Positions 4,263 to 56,890 of a stretch of DNA of 64,000 nt are shown here, one piece after another (positions within the stretch are counted from its first letter, which is position 1; each line of letters starts with the position of its first letter). Below the pieces are notes generated by a model that saw nothing but the letters and a program-made list of their open reading frames with translations, was not told the origin of the DNA and did not search any database. Source of the stretch: Carcharhinus longimanus (taxonomy: Eukaryota); assembly GCA_030264375.1 (NCBI GenBank), contig JASCQW010000142.1, positions 12,291,196 through 12,355,195 on the forward strand, in the 5' to 3' direction. The position numbers were made by a program, and so were the translations under genes.

Positions 4263-4597
4263 CATATAAAAGCAAGTTCTTCTGTCATCAATAAGGAGGA
4301 AGAAACAAAGTTAAATTGTGGCACCAGAAAGAGCTGAGTGCATCTTGGGATTTTGAGGGGGGGCGGGGGAGGTTGAGCCAGAGAGATGGGGGCCGGAGGG
4401 CAGGCAGTGCCAGAGCAACAGCAAACCAGAGACAGAGAGGGCAAGTGAGCCAGAGCCAGGGAGAGACCGCGAGAGGGGTGGGAAGGATAGTCTGCAAATA
4501 TCACTAAGCGCTCCCTCTCTAATCCCATTAATTGTGTTGATGAAAACATTTAAGAAAATGATTAAAAATTGGAACCCAGTTTCTTTTAGTCCATTTC

Positions 4598-4603
4598 TTT
4601 ATT
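4598..4603 (-). terminator. Candidate polyadenylation signal (AATAAA) ending the long FRS3 3'UTR
   Basis: AATAAA on the minus strand is followed by a T-rich downstream element (tttttaatcattttcttaaatgtttt), at the edge of a ~7 kb block poor in young repeats. Confidence 0.4.
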
Positions 4604-7600
4604 CTATATGCCATTTTTAAAGGCCAATAAAGTATGATACAGCAACGCTCTTACAACATTTAATCGTTATATTTCATACATTTCCATACAGCATATAAAC
4701 AAAGTATGAAATGGTGCTAGTTTGAACATAACATTTGCAGTACCGTATAATACAATGCATTTATAAACATAACCTGATTTCCATAAAACAGAAACATCCA
4801 ACTTAATTGTTCATCCCTAATGGGGATCTTTTATTAGTGTAGTCACTTTAATAAAGTCATAAATATTTAGAATCAGACTACAATTACTTTGACTGAAATT
4901 ACAATACCATTATTCTGCTTAAGCATACCTACAGTTTACCTAAGGAAAACTAGGCCATTAATTGCATTTAACCCTTCCTTATCCATAAGGGCACAAACAG
5001 CACTTTTTTTGAGAGTGATGATGGTGCTGATTATTATGATATTGAAGCTCAATTTGAAGAGGCAACTAATTACTGGGCTTTACCTTTAATGAACAGAGTG
5101 AATAATACCTTTAATATAAAGCATCAACCACTTTAGCATGAGCAGTTTTCATAATGTTGCTACAGTGCAGAGGTTAACAGCATTTTGGATAAAAGATGTG
5201 CAAAATCTATTGACAGAGAAAGAAAATACACCTTGACTGAATGATAAATGGTTACAATCCAACCAGATTATTTCCTGGTTAATTTTACCTGCAGGCCCTA
5301 CTTGATCGATGAAGCAGCTCAGGACAATTTGTACGTACCATGGTTCCTTTGTGAATTCATGAAGTGGGTTTGAACACTTCATGGATTGGAAAGGGTTAAA
5401 AACAGTAGAGTTTATAAACTCAAGGATATCACAGCTAAGGAAACGCGATAATCACAGAATTCACAAATGCCACCACAGTTCCCTACACATTGTTTAAAAA
5501 TAACTTAGAGGCATATGTGAAATTTGAACTGTGGATTTATTGGCGCCTGGTTGAAGTGGTGGCATTAGGTCACAGTCATGAGCAAATAGGACAAAAGCAT
5601 TAAGACGGGCAATGAGATATTGATTTACATCGTACCATTGTATGAATGCACGCCGTATGTGCAGGGACCTGGGAAAGTAAATGTCACAATCATCCTAATG
5701 TTTGGTAAAAAATTAAGGCAAATTATTTTAACAGCAAAAACTGGATGCATGTTAAGTTTAAAATGATCAGGGACCTCTCTGAGTACCAATACAATTAAAT
5801 CACATTATTACTATTTGAGATTTGAAAAAGTAACTCTAGGTGCTCCATTACAATTTTTCTCCAATCTGATCTGGTACTATCTGATTTTGAGTAAATTGTC
5901 AATTCTGACTGATTACTAAGGCCTGGGAAATGCACTCCCTCTGTACCAATAAAAAATCATTTAAACAAAGCAACAAAACTACCTGCGTAGGGAAAAAAAA
6001 ATCTAGTTTGAGTCCCTTTCTTTTTTGCATATATAGGCTTTTCAAATGGCTATAGTTTAGCTTAGTTGACAGCATGCTCCTACAATTCTTGTGCAATGAG
6101 TTCTGTGTACATTCAGAAAATTCTGTGATTACCCTTCTTCTGTACCTTGGAAAAGCTCACGGAAGCAGACATATACAGCAGCATCCAAGGACATCTACGT
6201 ACAGTACACAAAAAACTTCTACAAAACTGCCAGCAGATCAGCACATGCAGAGGAATGAAGGACTGTTAAGATGGTGATAATTATGGCCTGAAACCTGCTC
6301 GGACTATTTATTCATGAAACTTTACACAATACTTGACGGGAAAAACGCCCACTGAAATTTAAAAGTGACTATACAATGAAAGTTGCGCAATTGCGTTTGT
6401 GACTAGAGGCATCTAGATGTCACCGCCGTGTCGACAGTGGCACTTCAAATCAAATCACACATACTCTCTACAATGTACATCAAAATTATCAGACTTAAAT
6501 ACTTCCACTAGTGTCCCAGTATTTTTATTCAGTGTGTTTTGGTCACCAGTGCGGAAGAATGAAACCACTTTCCACTTTTGCTTTTATGACAATAATAATG
6601 ACTCAAGACCAAGTAACCTAGTTTCATGGAAGTCTTAGCCCCTACTACAGATATGTAATTAGGAGGAAAGGGAAGAAGTGTGGCTAATCACAACTGTATT
6701 TAAAAATCTTGCTTCCATCTAAACATCTTACTAGCACAGTGATAAGGCACTTGCTTCTCACCTCTACATTTTACAGATTAAGTCAGGCAAAGCCTTACAT
6801 TCCAAGCATATTTATAATATTTGAATCTTGGCATTAGTAGCATCCACCTTCTAATACACCCACCCCTGCCAAACACAAAGAAAACACCAATTACAATATT
6901 TAGAAAACAGACACCTGCTACCAGCCAATCCATATGGCAACTGAGGCACTTAGCTGTAAAAGAAACTTCAGTGCTAATCTGTAAACATAACTGTATTCAG
7001 CAGTCTCAGCGACTGATCAGAGGTCAAATTTTTTTTTTAAAGAGAGAGAGGTGGGGGAGTGATGACACAGCCTTCTAAATGATTTAGCAAATAGAGAGAA
7101 CTTCAAATTTAAATTAAAATGCTTTACCTCACCAAGAGAAGACAACAGTTTGCACAGGAAACACCAAGGCCAGTATTTTAAGGCTAAAATTGCACAATAT
7201 GAAGTTATAACTATTATAGACCTGGCCAAGCCAGGTCAACAAGAAAAGATACAAGGATTCTTGGCTTTCATCCTTAGTTTTTAAACATCTATCGGTTGAT
7301 GTTAACTACATGGTTTTGGATTACAAGAGAGCTGGTGGAAAACCCTGAATAGAAATCCAGACAGCACAATAATCTCTTTAATATCATCTGTTCTTGGCTT
7401 GAGAGTGCTGTAAAGGATCTGTAACTTCAGCAGTGCAACAGAGTGCAAGTCCCAGTCTCAACTACCCTTTGAACTTTGTATCCATCAGCCTGATTGGAGA
7501 AAATCGTGGCTGTTGTGCTGGCCAAAGCATTGCTCTCTTACGCTCGGAAACTGGATTCAAATCCTACTTGGAGAGAACACAAACTCCACCACCTGCCACA

Positions 7601-8539
7601 AGTTTAAGGTCACAAATTAAAAGAAAACAAATTAGAAAAAAGTCTGACAAGTCTTCATGCAGTTTCCAGTTGGAATCTGTAGTTCAAAATCAACCCTAAT
7701 TTGGCACTGATTAGAAATTTTCATCTAAGACAAACTAAGTAAGGTTGTTACAGAACCCAAATCAATGCAGTTCAGGTACATCTAGGACTTGAAAGCTATA
7801 TTCATTTTCAGATCTGTTCTGAGCAATGCCTGATCAAAGAGTGCAAAAGAAGGCACAAAGTGGAAATGAAGTTTCATTCTTTAGCCCTGTTCAACCTCAC
7901 CCTGATGAGTACACCTGCATATAGGAGGATAATACTGTGAAGCCATTCATTTGGCCAACTGAAGTTCAAAAAGTTGTGCACAGAACTGGTGCAGTCCCAA
8001 GTTCAGTTCAAAAAGGACAAAATCCCTAATCCCTTGCATCTATGGTGAATACAGACGATCCTGGAAATGAACACACACACACACACATAACAAAGGCCAC
8101 GTATATTTGTTGAGTGGAAATCAGCTTAATCCTGGTGAAAAAACTAAAAACCGCAACTGCACCCAACATCGGAAAAAGTAAATGCAATTTGGCAACTCTT
8201 AGCTTTCAAAGCACACACAAAATATTTTCAAAGCTGCAATATATTTCCACCAATATCTGTTCAAGCATAATGTGATAAGAGTTAAATGCACATAATGTAT
8301 GGCCGAACAACTGAAATGTCATTAATTGCTGCTATGCCCCACACTTTATAGTCTCAAACTGCATTCCACAGAATCAACTGTAAATTCCTAAAATATGATA
8401 CTTTAGTTCCATCTAGTGGCATGCTGCGGTAGTGACTGATTTTAGACGCCATTTACTAGCTCATTGCAACTTGCTTTGTCCCTGCCAATCTTTTCCTTTA
8501 GAAGGTCTTGACTCTTTCTTGCGGTCTAATTCTATGAGC

Positions 8540-8855
8540 AGCACTTCCTCTAGTAGCAGCTAGTTCAAATGGTCATTTTTTCAAGTGTGAGATTTAACAG
8601 TCAACATGCAAACTCACCTTGAGGGAGGATTCCTGCAGCCTGTCCTCCGATATCATTGCAAGCACATCGTCAGCTGGGGCATTGGATAGCAACAGTGGCC
8701 ACTTTTACTCTCACCCCCCAACCCAGTGGCACTAAGGCTACCTATCATCGCCTCCAACTGAAACCAGTTTATGGATCCACCGTGAACCCAAGAGATACTT
8801 GGTTGTAGTACCAGCTACTCATTGCATTACCTCACTAAACTATTGGAGGAGCCCA
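8540..8855 (-). mobile_element. Possible ancient, highly decayed tRNA-derived SINE
   Basis: The minus strand begins gggctcctccaatagtttagtgaggtaatgca, a SINE-head-like sequence. There is weak resemblance to 33640-33860. Confidence 0.3.
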
Positions 8856-11481
8856 ACATGTACCTCTCTTTGACTTCTCTACCACCCCCCTTTTGAAGTT
8901 ATTTTAATATTTCTATGCATTTTCTCACTCACAAATCGGCAATTGTGCAAGATCTTTTAGTGTTAAACCAGTAAACTGGCATCGTGCAAATGAAGTGCAG
9001 AAGTGACTCCCACTCATTAACTTTCTTCACCTTGCTGAGGAAAACTCCTTGGTGCCTCACTGCATTTACTCACACAGCTAACTGGGTTTAGGGATGAAAA
9101 GCTGCTGTGTGGAAATGTTACTTTCAGCCAAATCTCAGTCACAATCTGTACTTTCTACAGTGTGCCACACTAGTACCTGTGTTACAAAAGGCATCATTTT
9201 TAGGTTAAACACATGACAACTGTACAATAGAAACCAGTTCAGTAATACTACATTCCAAATTTTTCCAGATAAGTGGAGGCTTTTCACTACAGCATATTAA
9301 TTAAACAAGAAAGTCAAAGTGCAGCACCATCTGTGACTCATCACCATGGCAGCTGTAAATTCAAAATGCAGAGGGGGATGGGGGAAAAGAGGCAGTTTTA
9401 AGGAATTAAGCAAAGCCTTTTGGTTCAGAAAAATGAAAGTGATTAGCTTCAGGAATGTCATACAATTAACCAGATTTTGCAGCATCACAATAGCCAGTTT
9501 TGCAGAGAATTTTAAAACAAAGGTGTTTAACTTTTAAATATACTTGTAAGACTTGCGATTTAAGACTGACAGTTGATGGAGACATTCAAGTATCAAAAAT
9601 CTTCAGTGATGTTGAGTGTCTGAGTTAACTTTCTTTTAAAAAAAAATCTTTAGGAACAAATGATGTCCTTCATTTCTTTTTCATAGATACTCTGCATCTG
9701 TCAACTCACTCCCAACAAACTCAAAACATGGATAATATACTGCAGCTTTGAAAGTTATATTGGGAAAGTCAGACAAATGTCAGGCTATGTGATCTTGTGC
9801 AGAAAGTTATTACAGTATTTGCATTCCCACAGACCACAGCAGAAATGCTTATGACCAAACACTGTCCTATTCACATTGTTGTATTAAATGAAGTACAAGC
9901 TGAAAAGGGAATTATGGTGTTTTTTGATCAACTACAGCCAAAGTACAACATACAAATAAGTAATTAACTATGAAGCTCCAACAATTGGAAGGAGCAAGCA
10001 AGTCTTAGTGTAAACAAAGGCACCAGACAGACTGGATTTTGTTAAACACTACATCATATTTCATGCATGGAGGGTTGGCACTTTTTTGGCACATTTTATA
10101 ATGTTTTATAACCCTGAAAATGTAAAGAGTCAATTACAGAACTAGAAATAAGAGTTAAGGATGTTCAATATAAATTGCAGTAAGTCAGTTTGATGAATGA
10201 TCACACTTTTGATGGGAGATTAATTTGTACAATCTAAGAAAACAGTATGTACTTTCAAAATACAGTATATGATGCTCTCACACACAACTCCTTATGTAAC
10301 TAGCTGAGGCGAACTAAAAATTTGGGGTCTTTCCTTTCTGATTCAGAGTAGATATATTGGAAACTTAGAGGAAAAACTGAAGCCTCATTGCATGTGTCAA
10401 TACTACTTCCACTAGAGAAATTACTATTACGCAATCATTCACCCACCTCGCATCAAATTTCAACTTGAGTTTCACTCAATTGAAGAAACAGGTTTGAGTA
10501 GTTCTTTTAAACATTAGCTTGGAACATTTTTATACAACTCCAACTGCCTTGTAAGTCCAACTTTTCTTGCCAATTCTTTTCTGCAGCTGTTCTATTTCTC
10601 ACTTTTCCTTCCATCCCCACATGGTCTTGTTGGGTCTTGCTATAAGTCTGTACACATTAGGGTCTCACCAACTCCTACCCCCTTACTCACAAACAGTGAT
10701 CTTTCTGCCATTGTACTGGGGCAGGGGTAAGAACTGAGCTTAAGCAAGCTGTTCCACCTTGCATGAGCAGGACATACAAGCCAGGAAATCCATGTGCACG
10801 CCCTTCTTCCAGGAGTCATAGGACTGCAGCTTGGAGGAGAGGTGCTGCCTTTTCTTCTCCTCCCTAACCAACCACCACTGCAGAGACCAGTTAATTCAAC
10901 AATTAGATTGAACTGTTGACTTTCCTACTAGGAATAGGTGAGCTACTCACTAGATAAACTTAGAGGTATTGATGGAGCATTTGTGCTATATTGATTTTAT
11001 AAATACGAACATACTGTATCAGAATCCCCATCTAATCAAACATTCATTTGATTCCCCTTGACAAATAAAGCAAAAGCATTTCCAATGAGCAGGCCACCTT
11101 TGAAATTTGTAGCAAACATCCTTAATCCTTTGACAATTGTTCATCTGAGCTGTTCGATGTAGTTTTTACATCTTTCACTACACGATGCACAGTAAAACAA
11201 TGTTGACTGATGCATAGTAATGACTAGCATCAAATACCTTAAATAGCCTCCTGACACTTGGATCAAAGAGACAGTATCTGTTTTCCTGGGCCTGCACACA
11301 GTCTATTTCATAAAGCATTAAAAAAAAGTCAAAGAAAAACATCTCAAAGCACATGATATTATTTCCTTTTGAAAGTAGCAGCCCATCAAAAATGACAATT
11401 TCTGTACCAAGCTTGTCATCTTTAACAAAGGATCTCTGCAGGAATGTAGTGACAATTTAAAGCCATTCTGAAATGTCTGTG

Positions 11482-11671
11482 CACGCAAGACCTTTTAAAC
11501 AGAGGCTGTCCCTTTAAAAAAGGCAAAGTTTTACCCAAGAAGAAAATGTAGACTATAATGTACCATATTTGACACTTCAGAAGTAGAACATTTTCTTTGA
11601 ATTCATTTTAATGGCAATTATGGCTAGCAGTGGGTTCCAACAAATGAAGAGAATGGCAGATGTGTACTGTT
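11482..11671 (-). pseudogene. Processed (spliced) copy of the FRS3 exon5/exon6 junction
   Basis: 11652-11671 matches 18832-18851 at 19/20 nt. 11482-11651 matches 16210-16379 with 2 mismatches. The join falls exactly at the GT (18831-18830) and AG (16381-16380) boundaries. Confidence 0.8.
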
Positions 11672-12419
11672 TGACTTTCCATGACTTTTTGTGTCACGTG
11701 CCGTGGTGAATGACACAGTTCCATGAAGAGGTGACACAAGTGCATAAGGCCAAGTGCATTATCCTGAGGACTCCATTCTTCCTGCCGTAGACAGCCCATG
11801 ATTCTTTTCACCATGTTCATTTTTCCCAGATTCCTGAAAACACGGCCAACCCAGAAAATTAAAAGGTCTCGAGTGGACGAAGGAGAGATGAAGGTTGGTG
11901 TTTTCTTTCCCCACCTCCTCCAAGCATTGGTGGGCTTTCTTAACTATAGTGTCGGTATGGGGGGGACCTCGAATTGGATTCAATTGGAATTTGGTTTTTG
12001 GAACAAACAAGGAGATGGGTTGGGGTTTGCCTGCTCTGCTCTGAACATTGGCTTTATAACTTTAAGGATGGAGTTTAAAAAGAATTTGTAAACTCTTTAG
12101 TGCCTGCCTACCCTGAATCCTAGCCTTGGGAGCAATGTTTCAACTTGTGCCCTCAGTGACGTTTGGGCTCTTATCTTGTGTAAAGTAGTGGCCATGAAAA
12201 AGAATAAGGTACAGTGTGTAAAGATCACTGAGTTCAGACTGCTCCCCATCACTGGCCGTTGCTGCTTCATTAAAGCTACTAAATATTCCCCCTACTCCCC
12301 CCCACCCCAATCAACCTCCCCCTTCCCTTGATGCACATACTCCGAATAGTAGACTGTTCCACAGCCCTTAGCAGTTTACTGCAATAAATCCCAGTTTACT
12401 GAGATAAATCCCAGATCTT

Positions 12420-13177
12420 AATTAATGGTAGGGCATTGGGGAGAGTTATAGAACAAAGAGATCTAGGGGTATATGTTCATAGCTCCTTGAAAGTGGAGTC
12501 ACAGGTGGACAGAGTGGTGAAGAAGGCATTCGGCCTGCTTGGTTTCATTGGTCAGAACATTGAATACAGGAGTTGGAATGTCTTGTCGAAGTTGTACAAG
12601 ACATTGGTAAGGCCACACTTGGAATACTGTGTGCAATTCTGGTCACCCTATTACAAAAATGATATTATTAAACTAGAAAGAGTTCAGATTTATTAGGATG
12701 CTACCAGGACTCGATGGATTGAGTTATAAAGAGAGGTTGGATAGGCTAGGACCTTTTCCTTTGAAGCATAGGAGGCTGAGAAGTAATCTTATAGAGGTCT
12801 ATAAAATAATGAGGGGCATAGATCAGATAGATAACTATCTGATAGTTATTATCTTTTCCCAAAGTTAGGGGCGTCTAAAACTAGAGGGCATAGGTTTAAG
12901 GTGAGAGGGGAGAGATACAAAAGTTTCCAGAGGAGCAATTTTTTCACACAGATGGTGGTGAGTGTCTGGAACAAGCTGCCAGAGGTAGTAGTAGAGGGGG
13001 GTATAATTTTGCCTTTTAAAAAGCATTTGGATAGTTACATGGTTACAAAGGGTATAGAAGGATATGGGGCAAATGTGGGCAATTGGGCTTAGCTTAGGGG
13101 TTTTAAAAAGAAAGGGCTGCATGGACAAGTTGGGCCAAAAGACCTATTTCCATGCTGTAAACCTCAGTGACTCTATA
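12420..13177 (+). mobile_element. CR1 LINE, 5'-truncated
   Basis: RDLGVYVHSSLKVESQVDRVVKKAFGLLGFI..LYKTLVRPHLEYCVQFWSPYYKNDIIKLERVQ and FFTQMVVSVWNKLP; ends in a GACTCTATAACT tail. Confidence 0.95.
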
Positions 13178-13552
13178 ACTGTCAAATAGGTGAATGCAAA
13201 TGCTGTTACTTTAGCACTGACCAGACAGTCATGTTTTTGAAGGTCATATTTTCCTCATCGTTGATCTTCCCGTAGGTCTATCAATAAAATTGGCTACCTC
13301 TTCTGTTATTCTGAAAATGAAAGGGAGCCATCCTAGGTAATACACTTAGGATGGGACATTTGAACCTCACTACATCAATACAACAATTCTTGGTTGCATA
13401 GCATTTGCATCAATTGAAATCAATGAAAGGAAAATTAAACTGGTTCTACAATGTCCACCAATCCACTTTATTAGTTTATGCCCAGATAGCCAAATTGGAA
13501 ACTCTCTCCCACTTCTGTAACCAAAGGTTTGATCACTATTATTCTCCATCTT

Positions 13553-13800
13553 TGCTTGGGTGTCTGTGTAGAGTTTGCACATTCTCCCCGTGTCTGCGTG
13601 GGTTTCCTCCAGGTGCTGCAGTTTCCTCCCACAATCTAAAGATGTGCGGGTTAGGTGGATTGTCCATGGTAAATTGACCCTTACTGTCAGGGGGACTAGC
13701 TATGGTAAATGCTTGGGCATAGGGCTTGGGTTGGATTGTGGTCAGTGCAGACTCGATGGGCCAAGTGGCCTCTTTCTGCACTGTAGGATTCTATGATCTA
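13553..13800 (+). mobile_element. HE1-like V-SINE, 5'-truncated
   Basis: Core gagtttgcacattctccccgtgtctgcgtgggtttcctcc and CR1-type tail ctgtaggattctatgat. Confidence 0.9.
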
Positions 13801-14748
13801 TTTGTTATTGTAAAGGAAATGGGCCTGATTTTAAACTGTCAACTATTTCATTGCTATACAATGTTTTGAAATGGTGGGTGATAAGTGCTAGCCCCAATCC
13901 CAATAGGAAACTTGAACAAGCTATCAAAACTATTTGCAATTTGTATTTTACAAGAACCTTTCTGAAGTCAGAAGAAACAAGGTGTTTATTATAACAAAGG
14001 AAAAAAAGTAAGCTTAAGGCACGAGATTTTTTTCAGAATTTACAGGTCTTTCTTGCTAATTTATGGCCACCACTTTTTAGGTAAAAGTAAACTTACCATT
14101 GCTTACCATTTGTCATTAATTGTACATTTTTTTTTGAAATACAATAGTTAACTTCAATTCACTTCTCTTATCTTCCTAAAATAAATTTCTGTGCATGCTA
14201 CCCACTGGTACTCCATCTCAGCTTTGCTCAGATCACATTGATGTTCTGAACTCTGCAGTCTACTGTCCTCAATTTAATTAAGTTACCAACACCCATACTC
14301 TCACACACAGCCTGTTTCATACAGTATATCAGAATGATGTCGGGAAAATATTGAAAAATATATTTGTTCTCAACTATAAAGGGCAGTCTTGACATTAGAG
14401 GTAAATTGGGCAACGAAATTGCTTATTTACATTTTTTTGATGTAGGTTTAGCATGCCAGTAAATGCCCAAGGTCACCAGATTAAAAATGTCAACTGAATC
14501 AATTCTTTTGAAGGTACCTAATTGATAGAAGTGGTGCTGTATTTTCTAACTTTTAACATTTTGGACTGCACCAACATTGAGAATGACATTTGGACCCATC
14601 TTCATTCTTGCCGACAGATTCAAGTTAATATGATTCAATACAAGGAAACGTTTCACATTATTTTGACTAAGGTTTAATTGAGACCCTCAACCACATACTA
14701 CGCAACCATTTAAAACAGGGTTGTGGCGTAAAACAGTTTAAACTCTGT

Positions 14749-14874
14749 GGCCGAATTTTACCGACATGCCAGCCCCGATTCCGAGGGCGGGTTCAGCTCG
14801 GAGAACGGCATTCTCCGTTGGCCTCAGGCAGGATCGTGTGAAACTTGGGCAGACGTGCTGGTAAAATTCCTCCC
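14749..14874. mobile_element. Short MITE (PIF/Harbinger-like) with terminal inverted repeats
   Basis: TIRs ggccgaattttacc...ggtaaaattcctccc, with a 3-bp TGT on each flank and a CpG-rich interior. Confidence 0.65.
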
Positions 14875-15699
14875 TGTAAGTCCAATAATAGTCCTAGGAA
14901 CTAGAATAATGCAGCTGTTATTATTGCTCTTGCCACACCTAGTGGTGCACTTGGCAGAACATTACCTGTCCGCATAGCACAGTTTTTCCTGGAACATGTA
15001 GCTGGCCTGTCATTAAAGGCTTTATAGATTTGTAGGGGTGGGGGGAGGGGCAGGGAGCACTCAGCATCAAGCAGGTCTGACCAGGAGTCTTTCCTGTTCT
15101 TACCACTATTGGCATGTTAGAAGGATTTTGCAGTTTGTTATTAACCTGTTAGCGGCGTTGTGAGGTGGGACTCAAAACTGGAACTTCTGGCAAAGAGGCA
15201 GCGACGCTCCCCACTGTGCCACAAGACCTCCTATAATGTAACTGTGGCAATAAATTAATCTTATGTTCATTTATGTGAGGCTATTTTTATATTTTGCAGT
15301 GTTACCAATTTAACCAAAACGCAGGTGATGACGGCTCTTCATATTGTCCATCTGCCAATGCAACTAAATTATATTTAACCTAGCAGGATGATAGCAGGTG
15401 CTGTCTTGTGTTCTGCACAGATGCTGCACACATGATTGAAGTCATTTCAGGAATATATTTGATGGGATTTCAACTTCCTCGGAGTTTTCTACATCACTGC
15501 TAGTTGGTGTGTTCTTTCACAACTTGAATTTTAAATGCTAAATATCATGAAGAAAAGTAGTTGATTTTATGTGGAACATGTGAAAAGGGCATGGTTTTCC
15601 AAATGTTCCTCATAAATTTTGGACAAATTCTGAATGCAGCAGTAATAAAGAAAATAATTGAGAGAGAAATCCTCAGCACTGAACTCTTCAAAGCCAACC

Positions 15700-16000
15700 T
15701 TCAAAGTGCAAGGTACTCAATGCACCTTGGACATTCTCTCTTCCCACCTTCTTCCGTCAGGAAAAAAATGTAAAAGTCTGAGATCACTCACCAAATGATT
15801 CAAGAACAGCCTCTTCCCTGTTGCTGTCAGACTTGAATGGACTTACCTTGTATTAAGTTGATCTTTCTCTACACTCTAGCTATGACCACAACATTCTGCA
15901 CTCCCTCATTTCCTTTTCTATGAACGTTGATAGCGTGCACGAATCAATACTTTTCACTGTATGCTAATACATGTGACAATAATAAATCAGATCAAATCAT
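15700..16000 (+). mobile_element. Rex1/Babar-type LINE 3' end
   Basis: Homologous, in opposite orientation, to 3310-3620; ends aataataaatcagatcaaatca. Confidence 0.75.
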
Positions 16001-16351
16001 GTCCTCCCCTACAAGCATAAAACCAGAATTGAATGTTTCATGTTTGTCTGAAATGCATTAGAAATGAATGTAATGACAAAATTGGTATTGCTATTACATT
16101 CACTTTTTANNNNNNNNNNNNNNNNNNNNNNNNNNNNNNNNNNNNNNNNNNNNNNNNNNNNNNNNNNNNNNNNNNNNNNNNNNNNNNNNNNNNNNNNNNN
16201 NNNNNNNNNCACGCAAGACCTTTTAAACAGAGGCTGTCCCTTTAAAAAAGGCAAAGTTTTACCCAAGGAGAAAATGTAGACTATAATGTACCATATTTGA
16301 CACTTCAGAAGTAGAACATTTTCTATGAATTCATTTTAATGGCAATTATGG

Positions 16352-16379
16352 CTAGCAGTGGGTTCCAACAAATGAAGAG
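16352..16379 (-). CDS. FRS3: Putative alternative terminal coding exon of FRS3 (encodes FSSFVGTHC*, then continues as 3'UTR)
   Basis: Strong acceptor cctttttctatgttttgttacag|. It joins in frame to the donor CCATT|GTAAGC at 18832/18831, and the spliced junction is present at 11652/11651. Confidence 0.65.
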
Positions 16380-16796
16380 CTGTAACAAAACATAGAAAAA
16401 GGATTAAAAACAAACATGAAATGGATATCTGACCTACTCCAGTAAAACCATCCTCCCCCTTTCTCTGCATCATCCCACATTGTCACCACCCCACAGAATG
16501 TGCAATACTATGTCAACGCCCAAAGAAAAGCAAAACCCAATTAGTGTTTTTTTCCTGACACTTCAAACACACAAAAGATAAATAGAAATATAAAATATAT
16601 GCAAAATAAGTTTAAAAATATGATTTATTTAATTTCAATCTTCAGATGATTTCTATAAAAGGCAAGAGCAGCCAGGGTTCTGACTCCCTGATTGTTGTTG
16701 ATGAATCTGATTGGAAAGAACTTTATAAATAGTAAGTGTTTTCAGTCATGGGCTACATGAGAATGGCAAATTGTTGCAGAGGATAAATAACTGCCT

Positions 16797-17049
16797 TCAC
16801 TGTGCAGAGTTTGCATGTTCTCCCCGTGTCTACGTGGGTTTTGTCCAGGTGCACCGGTTTCCTCCCACAGTCCAAAGATGTGCGGGTTTGGTTGATTGGC
16901 CATGTTAAATTGCCCCTCAAGTGTCAGGCTGACTAATAGGATAAATTCTTGGGGTTACAGGGAGAGGGCCTGGGTGGGTTTATGGTCAGTGTGGGCTTGA
17001 TGGGCCAAATGGCTTCTTTCGGCACTGTAGGAATTCCATGGTTCTATGA
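16797..17049 (+). mobile_element. HE1-like V-SINE, 5'-truncated
   Basis: Same core and tail as the full copy at 28853-29193. Confidence 0.9.
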
Positions 17050-17584
17050 AGCGAGGGGTAAAAAAATAAAAAGAATCAACGTAGGACTGCCATATTGTAT
17101 CCCAAATTATTTTGTTATACTGTAATGCAATAATTTAACAGCTGAAAAATGTAAATTCAAAAAATGTTCACAATTCGCGAAAGTCCTTAACAAGGAAAAA
17201 CCATATCATTTCAAAACCAAATTTCTTCTGCAGATCTCTCCTTTACAACTCCAATTAAATTAATTACTTTTGGTTTTCACTTGTGGCTCAATGGGTTAAA
17301 TCATCCCACTGTGCATTGCTAAGCCTACAAAGCAGAGTTAAACACACTACACACAGGACAACCAGTAAGTGAAAAAAACAAGTCCAGTGATTGAACTCTA
17401 CATAACAGAACAAATGGGTATGTTAATGCACAGATTTATAGTGCTGTGCCTTGAGGTCCTTGACAAAACATCGAGATCCTGACCAGAAGCACCACACAAA
17501 CATTGAGTATGGTTGGTGAAATGACACCATTTTATTTACGTGTAGCATGTTGCATTGTGCATCACTTGACGCTATAGTCAACAT

Positions 17585-18133
17585 GGGGTTACACAGTGGT
17601 TATAGCATTGCTGCCTCACAGCGCCAAGGACCCGGGTTCAATTCCAGTATTGGGTTTGTGACTGTGTGGGGAGCTTGCATATTCTCTCAGTGTTAGCGTG
17701 GGTTTCTTCCAGGTGCTCTAATTTCCTCTCAGTCTTAAGACATGCAGGTTAGGTGGACTGGCCATGCTAAGTCACTCCTTAGTGTCCCAAGAGTTACGGG
17801 TTAGGTGGACTGGCCATGCTAAATTGCTCCTTAATGACTCAAGGTGTGTAGGTTATATTGGTAAACCATGGTAAATGTGCGAGGTTAATGGGAAAAGGTG
17901 GGAATGCCTGGTGGGATGCTTTTTTGGAGTCACAGCAGACTTGATGAGCCCGATGGCCTCTTTTTGGACTGTATGATTCGTGGGCTGTTGGCTGTGATAA
18001 ATTGTTCCTTAGTGTCAAGGGGATTATCAGGGTAAATATGCAGGGCTTTGGGGATAGAGCCTAGTGGAATTGTTGTTGGTGCAGACTTGATAGGCCAAAT
18101 GGTTTCTTCTACACTGTAGGGGTTCTATGATTC
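17585..18133 (+). mobile_element. HE1-like V-SINE, compound copy with internal duplication and two tails
   Basis: tRNA-like head (gggttcaattcc B box), a repeated ggttaggtggactggccatgctaa, and two successive gcagacttgat..tggc..ctgta tails. Confidence 0.8.
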
Positions 18134-18329
18134 TTCAGCTTTGTATTTCATGTATTTTATGATGTGTATTTTTATAGATCGATGGGTTGGCAGGGAGGGG
18201 GGAGTCTATATGGGAGGAGTGCATACTTAGTCTGGCTCTGCTGAAATATCACAACCTCACTTGGGCATTCTGCTATGCTTTTGATTCAGATTTCCAACTG
18301 CCTTTTCATAAATAGATAGAAAGCGGCAG

Positions 18330-18527
18330 TTCTACCTGGCCCTCCCCTATTTCAACAGCATAAAACCAATCACGTTTCTATTTCTCTTCAATTCCGAAGA
18401 GAATAGTGGACTTTGAAACATTAGCAGTTTCTCACGCCACAGATGTTGTCGGACCTGCTGAATTTTTCCCCAGCATTTTCTGGTTTTAATTTCAGATTTC
18501 CAGTATCTGTGGTATCTCACTTTTATT
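18330..18527 (+). mobile_element. Penelope-like element terminal fragment
   Basis: Similar to the right arm of the 45420-45633 element (ccacagatg.tgtc.gacctgctga.tttt.ccagcatttt...ttcagatt.ccag). Confidence 0.6.
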
Positions 18528-18827
18528 ACTCAAAACAGCAAGATGTGATTTGATCCACGATTTTTGTGGATCGGCTGACCTGGGCAGGGAGGTTGTAGAG
18601 ATGCTAACAAAATCAACCAGGATGCATAACTGTCATTATTATTCCTAACAGAAAAGAGGCATAGGTGGAAACAAAAGTTCAGCTGCACTACACCTCATGG
18701 CCAAATAGCTGCTCAGGTCCATGCAGCAAGCACAGTGACTTGGGTCGAGCAACAGAATGGGACTGCACCCTAATCTGAACAGGAAGATGTAAATACTAAT
18801 AATCTCAAGGATGGAAATTGTTGATGC

Positions 18828-19781
18828 TTACAATGGCAGATCTGTACTGTTGTGCCTTGTCTTCCTTGATGTCCCATCATCCCTTGGTAGTGCTTTTTGC
18901 AAACTGGACATAGCAGCTGTCTTTTTAATGTCTATCACAGCGTAAAACTCAGTCCTACGTGTCGGAGTTGGCGGGACTGGAGTGCTGGGCATTTTGGGGG
19001 TCTGGGGGTTATCCGAGTCACTCCCACCCTCCAGCTCCACTTGGATGTAGTTTAATTGTCTTTGTTCGGGGCACGGACGCTTAAAGTCAAAGCTGAAGAC
19101 ATTTGGAGTGCAATCCCGCCGCCGGGTGAAGTCTACTTTATGCAAACCAGGTTGAATAGTTACATTCTCAGTATTGACATAGTTCCGCAATGGGTCAATG
19201 TTATTATGGTATCCATTTTGTGGAGGAGTTCCAGGGTCACTCCAATCCTCTTCCTCCCGCCTTTGTGTCTGACTTTCCCACACAGGAGGTAAAGAGGGTA
19301 GGTTTTCATAGTTCAGCATGGCTGTCTTCCTATGAGCACAATTGTTAAGGTTCTGGCCATCCCCACCCATCTTGAGCCGACCTCGTCGTAATCCTGCGCC
19401 AGCAGACACAAGTAAACCATTAATATTCTCATAAGTCATCTTGTTGTTAGACGCACAAGCCATGCTGTACTCTGCGCCATCCTGGAAATTATCTCGGTCC
19501 ACAAAACTCAAGCCACCACCACTGTATTCAGTGTGATCTTTATGCCTCTCTATCCTTTCACGCTCCATTATCCGTTTCTGAACTGGCGTTGGTCCCAGGA
19601 CAAACTTGACCTCCCCAGGCTGCATGAGGACTTGAGGAGTTCTGTCCTCCGTTGCAGGACAGTGATTTGCGTGGCTTCGCATCATTTCAGAGATGGATGG
19701 CCGTGTCTCTGTTAGACCATGAACACAGGGTCTTTTCTTCCTCTCCTCATCAACATTAGAAGTATTCACGTACGTGTGAAC
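18828..19781 (-). CDS. FRS3: FRS3 (FRS2-beta/SNT-2)-like adaptor, coding exon 5 with GRB2/SHP2 docking tyrosines and stop codon
   Basis: Acceptor ttccctgcag|GTT, phase 0, 317 aa. Reads VHTYVNT..VKFVLGPTPVQK..YENI..YENLPSLPPVWE..YVNTENV..LNYIQVEL..YAVIDIKKTAAMSSLQKALPRDDGTSRKTRHNSTDLPL*. Family assignment is firm; paralog assignment is less certain. Confidence 0.93.
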   Translation of the reverse strand, partial: VHTYVNTSNVDEERKKRPCVHGLTETRPSISEMMRSHANHCPATEDRTPQVLMQPGEVKFVLGPTPVQKRIMERERIERHKDHTEYSGGGLSFVDRDNFQDGAEYSMACASNNKMTYENINGLLVSAGAGLRRGRLKMGGDGQNLNNCAHRKTAMLNYENLPSLPPVWESQTQRREEEDWSDPGTPPQNGYHNNIDPLRNYVNTENVTIQPGLHKVDFTRRRDCTPNVFSFDFKRPCPEQRQLNYIQVELEGGSDSDNPQTPKMPSTPVPPTPTRRTEFYAVIDIKKTAAMSSLQKALPRDDGTSRKTRHNSTDLPL

Positions 19782-19937: not shown

Positions 19938-20225
19938 TAAGAACATAAGAAATAGGAGCAGGAGTAGGCCATCTAGCCCTTCGAGCCTGCCCCGCCATTC
20001 AATAAGATCANNNNNNNNNNNNNNNNNNNNNNNNNNNNNNNNNNNNNNNNNNNNNNNNNNNNNNNNNNNNNNNNNNNNNNNNNNNNNNNNNNNNNNNNNN
20101 NNNNNNNNNNAAAAAGTTATTCAATACCTTAGCCATATCCCCATCCCCTACCACTAGGTCCCCTTTCTCATCCTCTAAAGGACCAACTTTCACCCTAGCC
20201 AGCCTCTTCCTTTTTATATATTTAT
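19938..20225 (-). mobile_element. Young CR1 LINE spanning an assembly gap
   Basis: The tail aagaacataagaaataggagcaggagtaggcc is near-identical to those at 31700 and 56635. VKVGPLEDEKGDLVVGDGDMAKVLNNF lies on the far side of the gap. Confidence 0.85.
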
Positions 20226-21909: not shown

Positions 21910-22076
21910 CTGATCATCACCTCCTATGATCAAAGGATGCGTAGAATCTTCACCCACTGAGGAGAGGCGTGCACTTCCTATGGAGGGATGTCGAGTTGAT
22001 GGGTGAGAGGAGCCATCACCCATTGGTGGATAGCAAGGGAACCCATTTGGAAATCCTGGCACAGCAAAACCAGGGG
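21910..22076 (-). CDS. FRS3: FRS3-like coding exon 4
   Basis: ttttttcag|CC...CAG|gtgtgt, 167 nt, phase 1 to 0. Reads (T)PGFAVPGFPNGFPCYPPMGDGSSHPSTRHPSIGSARLSSVGEDSTHPLIIGGDDQ. Confidence 0.92.
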
Positions 22077-24476: not shown

Positions 24477-24638
24477 TGGTCGGTGTTTGAGGTGTCCTTG
24501 GTAGATCAAGCTCTGTTGGATGAGTGTTTCTTGATATCATCATGGGCTCCTCAACAACGTTAATACTGTTACACTGCATGATCTCTTGGAGAAGGTTAAA
24601 AATCTCCTCAGCACGTGCACACTTGAAGGCAAAAATGC
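24477..24638 (-). CDS. FRS3: FRS3-like coding exon 3 (end of IRS-type PTB domain)
   Basis: ttctttctttgcag|GC...ACCA|gtgagt, 162 nt, phase 1 to 1. Reads GIFAFKCARAEEIFNLLQEIMQCNSINVVEEPMMISRNTHPTELDLPRTPQTPT. Confidence 0.95.
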
Positions 24639-26848: not shown

Positions 26849-27035
26849 CTTGCCCAGTCTGACACCTTCTACCGCTCTCAAATGAGAAGAGGTTGGAGTC
26901 ATAACCATAGCGACGGAGACAGAGATACGGCCATCTCACCGCATCTCGTTTCCTGGTGTGCAAAATCAGCTCAGAGTTGGTCAATTCCATGATCCCAGAG
27001 CCCAGCTCATTACCATCATCATCGACGTTTGTCAC
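26849..27035 (-). CDS. FRS3: FRS3-like coding exon 2 (IRS-type PTB domain)
   Basis: tctctttcacag|GTG...CAAG|gttagt, 187 nt, phase 0 to 1. Reads VTNVDDDGNELGSGIMELTNSELILHTRKRDAVRWPYLCLRRYGYDSNLFSFESGRRCQTGQ. Confidence 0.96.
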
Positions 27036-30093: not shown

Positions 30094-30159
30094 CTTGAAT
30101 TTCGTTGGGTGGTTGTCTGAGATTGTGTCTTTATCCAGACAGCTCCAGCAGCTCCCCAT
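30094..30159 (-). CDS. FRS3: FRS3-like coding exon 1 (start codon, N-myristoylation signal); exon probably begins at 30182
   Basis: Strong Kozak gaagccATGG; MGSCWSCLDKDTISDNHPTKFK; donor AAG|gtaaca; upstream acceptor ttgttttatttag|. Not reported in the supplied ORF track. Confidence 0.95.
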
Positions 30160-31699: not shown

Positions 31700-32125
31700 T
31701 ATAAGAACATAAGAAATAGGAGCAGGAGTAGGCCATCTAGCCCCTCGAGCCTGCCCCACCATTCAACAAGATCATGNNNNNNNNNNNNNNNNNNNNNNNN
31801 NNNNNNNNNNNNNNNNNNNNNNNNNNNNNNNNNNNNNNNNNNNNNNNNNNNNNNNNNNNNNNNNNNNNNNNNNNNNTCTAGTAACAATAATGTCATTCAG
31901 GCCCTCCACTCGTACCATCTTTCCATCGCTAACACCCGGCAAATTATTCACGTGCTTCTCCGTGAAGACCGAAACAAAAAAGTTATTCAAGGTCTCAGCC
32001 ATTTCCCCATCCCCTACCACTAAGGAGGATGAGAGGGGGGACTAAGGGTCCAACATTCACCCTAGCCAGCCTCTTCCTTTTTATATATTTATAAAAATTC
32101 TTGCTATCCTTTTTTTATATTAAGC
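31700..32125 (-). mobile_element. Young CR1 LINE spanning an assembly gap
   Basis: Same tail as 19938; VVGDGEMAETLNNFFVSVFTEK motif. Confidence 0.85.
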
Positions 32126-56634: not shown

Positions 56635-56890
56635 ACATAAGAACATAAGAAATAGGAGCAGGAGTAGGCCATCTAGCCCTTCGAGCCTGCCCCGCCATTC
56701 AATAAGANNNNNNNNNNNNNNNNNNNNNNNNNNNNNNNNNNNNNNNNNNNNNNNNNNNNNNNNNNNNNNNNNNNNNNNNNNNNNNNNNNNNNNNNNNNNN
56801 NNNNNNNAGTACTCCAGCTGCGGCCTCACCAATGCCCTATACAGCTGCAGCAAGACCTCCCTACTTTTATATTCAATCCCCTTCATAATT
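56635..56890 (-). mobile_element. Young CR1 LINE 3' part spanning an assembly gap
   Basis: KGIEYKSREVLLQLYRALVRPQLEY; same tail as 19938 and 31700. Confidence 0.88.

Follow-up and report, generated by a model that had tools for sequence, protein, structure and literature searches.

The window, a stretch of 64,000 nucleotides (nt) of Carcharhinus longimanus DNA, carries on its minus strand the gene for the adaptor protein FRS3, whose stop codon overlaps a splice donor. Splicing from this donor removes a 2.45-kb intron together with the stop and joins the frame to a last exon of about 7 kb, which is nearly all 3' untranslated region (UTR) and encodes a different C-terminal tail, FSSFVGTHC. In the account that we consider probable, the spliced form is likely the main one, the exon is likely an ancestral gain, and a copy of the junction found as DNA elsewhere in the window is a by-product. 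A donor latent in the ending of the FRS family (NTG + TRA + G, also present in FRS2) would have been paired with a new acceptor, the exon arising in the common ancestor of sharks, rays and chimaeras. Splicing would thereafter delete the stop and attach the 7-kb exon with its tail, and the short end may persist as a minor form when the donor is unused and a nearer poly(A) signal is used. The DNA junction would be a chimeric retro-fragment of WDFY3 and FRS3 mRNA pieces, and its existence as DNA implies that spliced mRNA reached a reverse transcriptase in the germ line. The gene and its two ends are laid out as follows.

30094..30159, minus strand: FRS3 coding exon 1 (ATG, MGSC… start)
26849..27035, minus strand: FRS3 coding exon 2 (PTB domain)
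24477..24638, minus strand: FRS3 coding exon 3
21910..22076, minus strand: FRS3 coding exon 4
18832..19781, minus strand: coding exon 5 of FRS3 as far as the internal donor; the short form extends to 18828
18826..18831, minus strand: splice donor GTAAGC, which takes in the final base of Leu and the stop codon TAA (18830-18828)
16380..18831, minus strand: GT-AG intron of 2452 nt with SINE-type (short interspersed element) repeats; would be 3'UTR in the short form
18522..18527, minus strand: candidate proximal poly(A) signal AATAAA, about 300 nt past the short-form stop
16352..16379, minus strand: coding part of the last exon, which finishes the Phe codon, then SSFVGTHC and TAG
16210..16379, minus strand: first 170 nt of the last exon, interrupted by the assembly gap 16110-16209
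4589..11651, minus strand: body of the last exon, about 7.07 kb and nearly all 3'UTR; its first 170 nt duplicate 16379-16210
4598..4603, minus strand: likely distal poly(A) signal AATAAA; the transcript contig ends about 10 nt beyond it

The five coding exons, with GT-AG introns throughout, yield 511 residues. The short frame ends Leu-Pro-Leu-stop, and the donor GTAAGC begins at 18831 within the last Leu codon. Left unspliced, the protein of 511 residues ends STDLPL; joining 18832 to 16379, with 2452 nt removed, gives 519 residues ending STDLPFSSFVGTHC. The initial annotation had proposed this donor, intron and acceptor and the 511/519-residue pair of products, all of which joining the frames confirms, and the SINE-type repeats found in the intron agree with its description of an interval packed with repeats. 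On its exon side the donor reads ATT, off consensus. The acceptor, ending at 16380, has 16 pyrimidines in 20 and ranks joint second among the 74 YAG (pyrimidine-A-G) sites of the intron. As six of these 74 sites have at least 15 pyrimidines in 20, the pattern alone is insufficient proof of an acceptor, and it is RNA and conservation that single this one out.

The RNA evidence comes from three transcript-like runs (X8, X10 and X15, from three studies and three related organisms), taken from six runs guessed to be RNA. In each of them a single contig covers 19784-18832 and then 16379-16210 with no letters between, so that the junction is present in 3/3 runs from relatives, and at the upstream acceptor the same contigs exit the window, as expected of transcripts. 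Depth in the bin 18730-18849 is 2.57, 2.28 and 2.98, against 2.56, 2.28 and 2.98 expected from the spliced contig alone. No contig covers the unspliced UTR at 18610-18729 in any of the three, which is only a hint given that contigs lose rare variants. Beyond the junction, the X8 contig runs along 11651-4589 and stops about 10 nt after the AATAAA at 4603-4598, and the X10 contig continues for 7071 nt; together they define a last exon of about 7.07 kb that excludes 16109-11652. The splice therefore alters both the C-terminal tail and the 3'UTR, as had been claimed. The further claim of one splice choice switching two ends stands as far as the splice itself, whereas a regulated two-way switch is no more than a possibility, only the spliced form having been assembled in 3/3 runs. 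The spliced form is probably the main transcript and not a hidden minor one, the short tetrapod-like end being the less proven of the two. Within the 7-kb 3'UTR, a 242-nt stretch (5398-5640) has one 89% match on contig C43, the sole repeat-like match inside the exon among the 40 of 376 candidates that were scored.

Conservation of the tail among related chondrichthyans, which the initial annotation had left to comparison, is found in models from 16 named species. The tail FSSFVGTHC ends 20 of 432 fetched FRS sequences and none of the others. Eighteen of the 20 are named cartilaginous-fish proteins from these 16 species (chimaera, sharks, rays and skates) and the remaining two are unnamed members of a skate cluster; 15 of the 37 members of the largest cluster were listed. 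In a search with the last 42 residues, full cover was obtained only for tail-bearing clusters among the 120 of 357 matches listed, where a representative may conceal members of its cluster. All 9/9 positions of the tail are invariant in 14 species, and the nine residues and the stop position are identical from chimaera to skates and sharks. In the preceding exon of the same number of species, 199/323 columns (62%) and 35/315 nine-column windows (11%) are invariant. By this comparison the tail is as constrained as the motif blocks of the protein, though a conserved RNA element might produce as much, and some protein-level constraint on it is likely.

The initial annotation knew of no description of the isoform, but the extra last exon is already known in automatic annotation: the long RefSeq model (isoform X1 in most listed species) and the chimaera UniProt entry carry the tail. 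These long isoforms (among them XP_048409060.1, XP_038675258.1, XP_032898816.1 and UniRef100_A0A4W3GKU5) share the same junction product, the 519/511-type pair and the tail, but are automatic models that are mostly named 'FRS2-like'. Long and short models are both present for nine species. Searches aimed at the isoform turned up no paper that treats the tail, how well it is conserved or what share of transcripts carries it, although supplements to genome papers could mention the isoform.

Its exons, its place in a tree and its neighbours identify the gene as FRS3. Relatives that are 80-92% identical across exon 5 carry PF02174 (IRS-type PTB). Exons 1-3 of the window match relatives at 91-100% and begin MGSC, so the N-terminal MG start is present, with myristoylation only predicted. 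In a tree of 26 chosen rows, midpoint-rooted for drawing only, the window sequence falls among cartilaginous-fish sequences, the nearest being 95% identical, and lies outside the ten FRS2 rows, which form their own clade at 100/100. A second family gene in the genome, on contig C72, ends in Met as FRS2 does. Gastricsin-like matches lie at 12.06-12.28 Mb on contig C142, on which the window starts at 12.291 Mb, and pepsinogen-like genes are found about 12 kb downstream; frs3 flanks the pepsinogen cluster in cartilaginous fishes according to PMC13389413. The C142 interval, past the low end of the window, holds several pepsinogen/cathepsin E-like genes on both strands. An aspartic-protease gene about 57 kb from the FRS2 paralogue (C72, about 15.147 Mb) is reminiscent of the pairing of FRS3 with pepsinogen.

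FRS2 and FRS3 are described as myristyl-anchored adaptors connecting FGF receptors to Grb2 and Shp2 (PMC4826393). The initial annotation had likened the T-H-C end to a class I PDZ ligand. It does fit the class 1 pattern [ST]-x-[ACVILF], as a pattern match only, and the short end L-P-L fits class 2; these patterns are as written in PMC3424572 and PMC10185773. The match is of three residues, and by general residue frequencies about 5% of random C-termini would fit class 1 and about 9% class 2. We tentatively predict, as the most likely role of so short and invariant a tail, a C-terminal docking peptide of the class 1 PDZ type (T-x-C) on a membrane-anchored adaptor. Prenylation of the tail Cys was considered and rejected by the general rules, the Cys being last and not fourth from the end. 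A search of the ESM Atlas gave no usable match for the C-terminal 50 residues. The closest parallel is ATP2C1 (SPCA1a-d; PMC5143377), where, as in FRS3, splicing from an internal donor in the stop-bearing exon to a further last exon eliminates the first stop, and the resulting C-terminus has a class 1 PDZ motif by prediction. FRS3 differs from that description in that its donor overlaps the stop itself, so that only the last residue is replaced, and in the less certain abundance of its short form.

The donor has a simple sequence basis, as any NTG codon with TRA and G after it necessarily contains a GT-R-A-G donor (R, purine). In the FRS2 paralogue of the genome a donor-like GT likewise spans the last codon and stop, and no FSSFVGTHC-like tail occurs after FRS2 among 239 YAG sites in about 10 kb that includes 1479 N. 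Coelacanth, camel and tegu FRS2 models and turtle FRS3 models continue past STDLP with the residue expected from a splice there, their tails being dissimilar to each other and to FSSFVGTHC. In the sea-turtle models P0316, P0318, P0319, P0326 and P0328, FRS3 is fused to gastricsin at the twentieth residue of the latter, where the donor would act. These fusions may be read-through transcripts or artefacts, and several of the bony-vertebrate continuations may be artefacts of gene prediction. On grounds of parsimony, the likely history is one of an ancestral short end and a single gain of the exon, in the FRS3 of cartilaginous fishes. The stop, being part of the donor, would be conserved with or without a short protein. 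Meis/hth provides a similar history of 3' exon turnover, in which last coding exons are gained or lost by lineage via use or read-through of a stop-adjacent donor (PMC3140891). The polarity differs, the long end of Meis being ancestral and truncated and that of FRS3 more likely the gain.

The spliced junction had also been reported as DNA at 11652/11651. It is present there, although the upstream match is only 20 nt with one mismatch (11671-11652), and it is no plain FRS3 retrocopy but part of a two-gene chimera of WDFY3 and FRS3 with the following parts.

11652..16109, no strand assigned: segment of 4.46 kb absent from the mRNA contig of a relative, likely another locus joined by assembly
11922..12060, minus strand: high-copy repeat pieces just before the chimera, probably LINE-like (long interspersed element) by a peptide motif
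11852..11921, minus strand: chimera piece 1, the 3'-terminal 70 nt of a contig C109 exon, exactly up to its GT donor; probably a WDFY3 5' exon
11685..11851, minus strand: chimera piece 2, the first 167 nt of the WDFY3 start-codon exon (contig C1), starting exactly at the acceptor, 95% identical
11672..11684, minus strand: unexplained linker of 13 nt
11652..11671, minus strand: chimera piece 3, the last 20 nt of FRS3 exon 5, joined without an intron to the last exon; 1 mismatch

All gene pieces of the chimera have the same sense. The C109 piece is 96% identical to its exon over 70 nt up to the donor, and the C1 exon encodes the start of WDFY3. The C109 exon probably belongs to the same gene, to judge from the exact donor-acceptor join in which the two pieces meet. 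The assembly, however, places the C109 and C1 exons on two separate large contigs and may have split or misplaced WDFY3. The junction 20-mer would arise by chance at that one place with a probability of about 6e-11. Downstream of it, a 170-nt match at 98.8% extends up to the 100-N gap. Support from outside the assembly was sought in three of 11 genome-sized runs (X1, X2 and X6). In X6 (organism B) a 135-nt contig bridges the join with 52 and 80 nt on its sides, the chimera in organism B holds at least 72 nt of FRS3, and an adjacent contig leaves the exon start for 451 other bases, probably intron. X1, possibly the source of the window itself, branches at the same base as X6, and a second X1 contig over 16325 could not be placed. 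X2 is unbranched through 11651, with a depth of 15.9 against 15.83 expected from the source genes alone. The chimera is thus seen in DNA independently of the assembly in one of two independent runs (X6 but not X2).

Its 3' end is absent from the assembly and from the run contigs examined. The two 170-nt exon copies differ by 1.2%, compared with 4.6% for the WDFY3 pieces. A short copy that shares enough bases with the gene to mislead the assembler, and was misjoined to it, is the best fit and seems to us fairly likely. A full-length 7-kb retrocopy is not favoured, as depth is not doubled and neither X1 nor X6 branches at the poly(A) site. Precise intron loss was rejected because exon 5 contributes only 20 nt ahead of the junction. 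Template switching or RNA joining is described as a source of chimeric retro-insertions in PMC2104539 and bioRxiv 10.1101/2025.02.02.635956. The WDFY3-FRS3 fragment resembles them in its spliced pieces of different transcripts in one orientation, one of them from a gene's first exons, and in its short unexplained linker; it is unlike those described there in fusing two host mRNAs to each other. With the 3' end, poly(A) and target-site duplication unassembled, no enzyme can be assigned to it. Elsewhere in the window the assembly is broken at a young repeat, whose near-identical 70-nt ends at 19938-20010, 31702-31774 and 56638-56707 all lie directly beside a gap of 100 N.

Four other readings have to be weighed. 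Both ends might be made in real amounts in different tissues, a class 2-like L-P-L end with a short UTR against a class 1-like T-H-C end with the 7-kb UTR. The coexistence of long and short models in nine species, the AATAAA about 300 nt past the short stop and the off-consensus ATT before the donor would all suit such regulation; switches of this kind are known (ATP2C1, PMC5143377), and PDZ motifs are reported to be enriched in alternative exons. Against it, none of the three runs contains a short-UTR contig, a stop that lies inside the donor would be conserved without need of the short protein, and the short models could derive from alignment of bony-vertebrate proteins. We hold this reading possible, if on balance doubtful. 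Alternatively, the intron could be constitutive, in which case the short isoform would exist in annotation only and the tail would be retained for the sake of the RNA or tolerated as an extension that has no partner. The exclusively spliced contigs, a UTR that is highly conserved among the close relatives compared and a weak PDZ pattern reached by about 5% of chance C-termini point this way. The nine residues and stop position, unchanged from chimaera to skates and sharks and constrained like the motif blocks, do not, and we think it rather unlikely. Less probable again is an exon ancestral to jawed vertebrates (or to FRS2 and FRS3 together) that was lost in bony vertebrates and left a donor-like stop behind. 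The donor-like GT in the genome's FRS2, the coelacanth, camel, tegu and turtle models that continue past STDLP and the similar Meis history (PMC3140891) speak for it; those tails are, however, unlike each other and unlike FSSFVGTHC, no similar exon follows FRS2 within about 10 kb, and two losses are required instead of one gain, which makes this reading quite improbable. For the DNA copy alone, the assembly could be right, with the chimera in its true place, in tandem with an incomplete first exon copy that lies 4.5 kb before it. Such an order is that of the window, and the genome has only these two copies of the exon start. However, the first copy ends at a 100-N gap, X1 and X6 have no common exit branch within the exon, depth over the UTR in X1 is 4-9 and not above the 9.5-14.7 of the gene, and the copies differ by 1.2% where the WDFY3 pieces differ by 4.6%, so that a tandem arrangement is unlikely.

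The account in which a spliced main form follows from a single ancestral gain also has evidence to answer. The three transcript-like runs were only guessed to be RNA and come from relatives and not the source organism; as their contigs drop rare variants and their tissues are unknown, 'main form' is not a measured ratio. The 11% of nine-column windows in the preceding exon are as invariant as the tail, the 3'UTR is about 99% alike among the close relatives compared, and some of the conservation could stem from constraint on the RNA next to the acceptor. The Heterodontus model P0132 runs from the same donor into a different, hydrophobic tail of 23 residues, and RefSeq models are computed and are not protein evidence. 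The choice of gain over loss is a matter of parsimony among jawed-vertebrate sequences. X2 did not show the chimera, though it is closer to the window than organism B (0.8% against 1.1% in the UTR); loss, filtering or unequal rates could account for this.

With a mechanism of a known kind and an isoform already in automatic annotation, the surprise is modest. The chimera of WDFY3 and FRS3 adds a new case to a known class of retro-insertions. It may serve as a lineage marker, and it warns that the last exon is likely interrupted in the assembly. It is conceivable, though we regard it as a long shot, that a family-wide stop-donor predates the FRS2/FRS3 split, serving in cartilaginous fishes as a tissue-regulated PDZ-docking switch and used unannotated elsewhere, as in the turtle FRS3-gastricsin models. 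If true, FGF and neurotrophin signalling would be tied to a scaffold that bony-vertebrate FRS3 lacks. Three points are absent from the papers searched. A stop that doubles as a donor offers a route to a new last exon that alters only the final residue of the existing protein. The models display a core FGF-receptor adaptor with a different and unchanging C-terminus in all cartilaginous fishes seen. The spliced form, and not the mammal-like one, is probably the one mostly made, which matters for the cloning of shark or skate FRS3.

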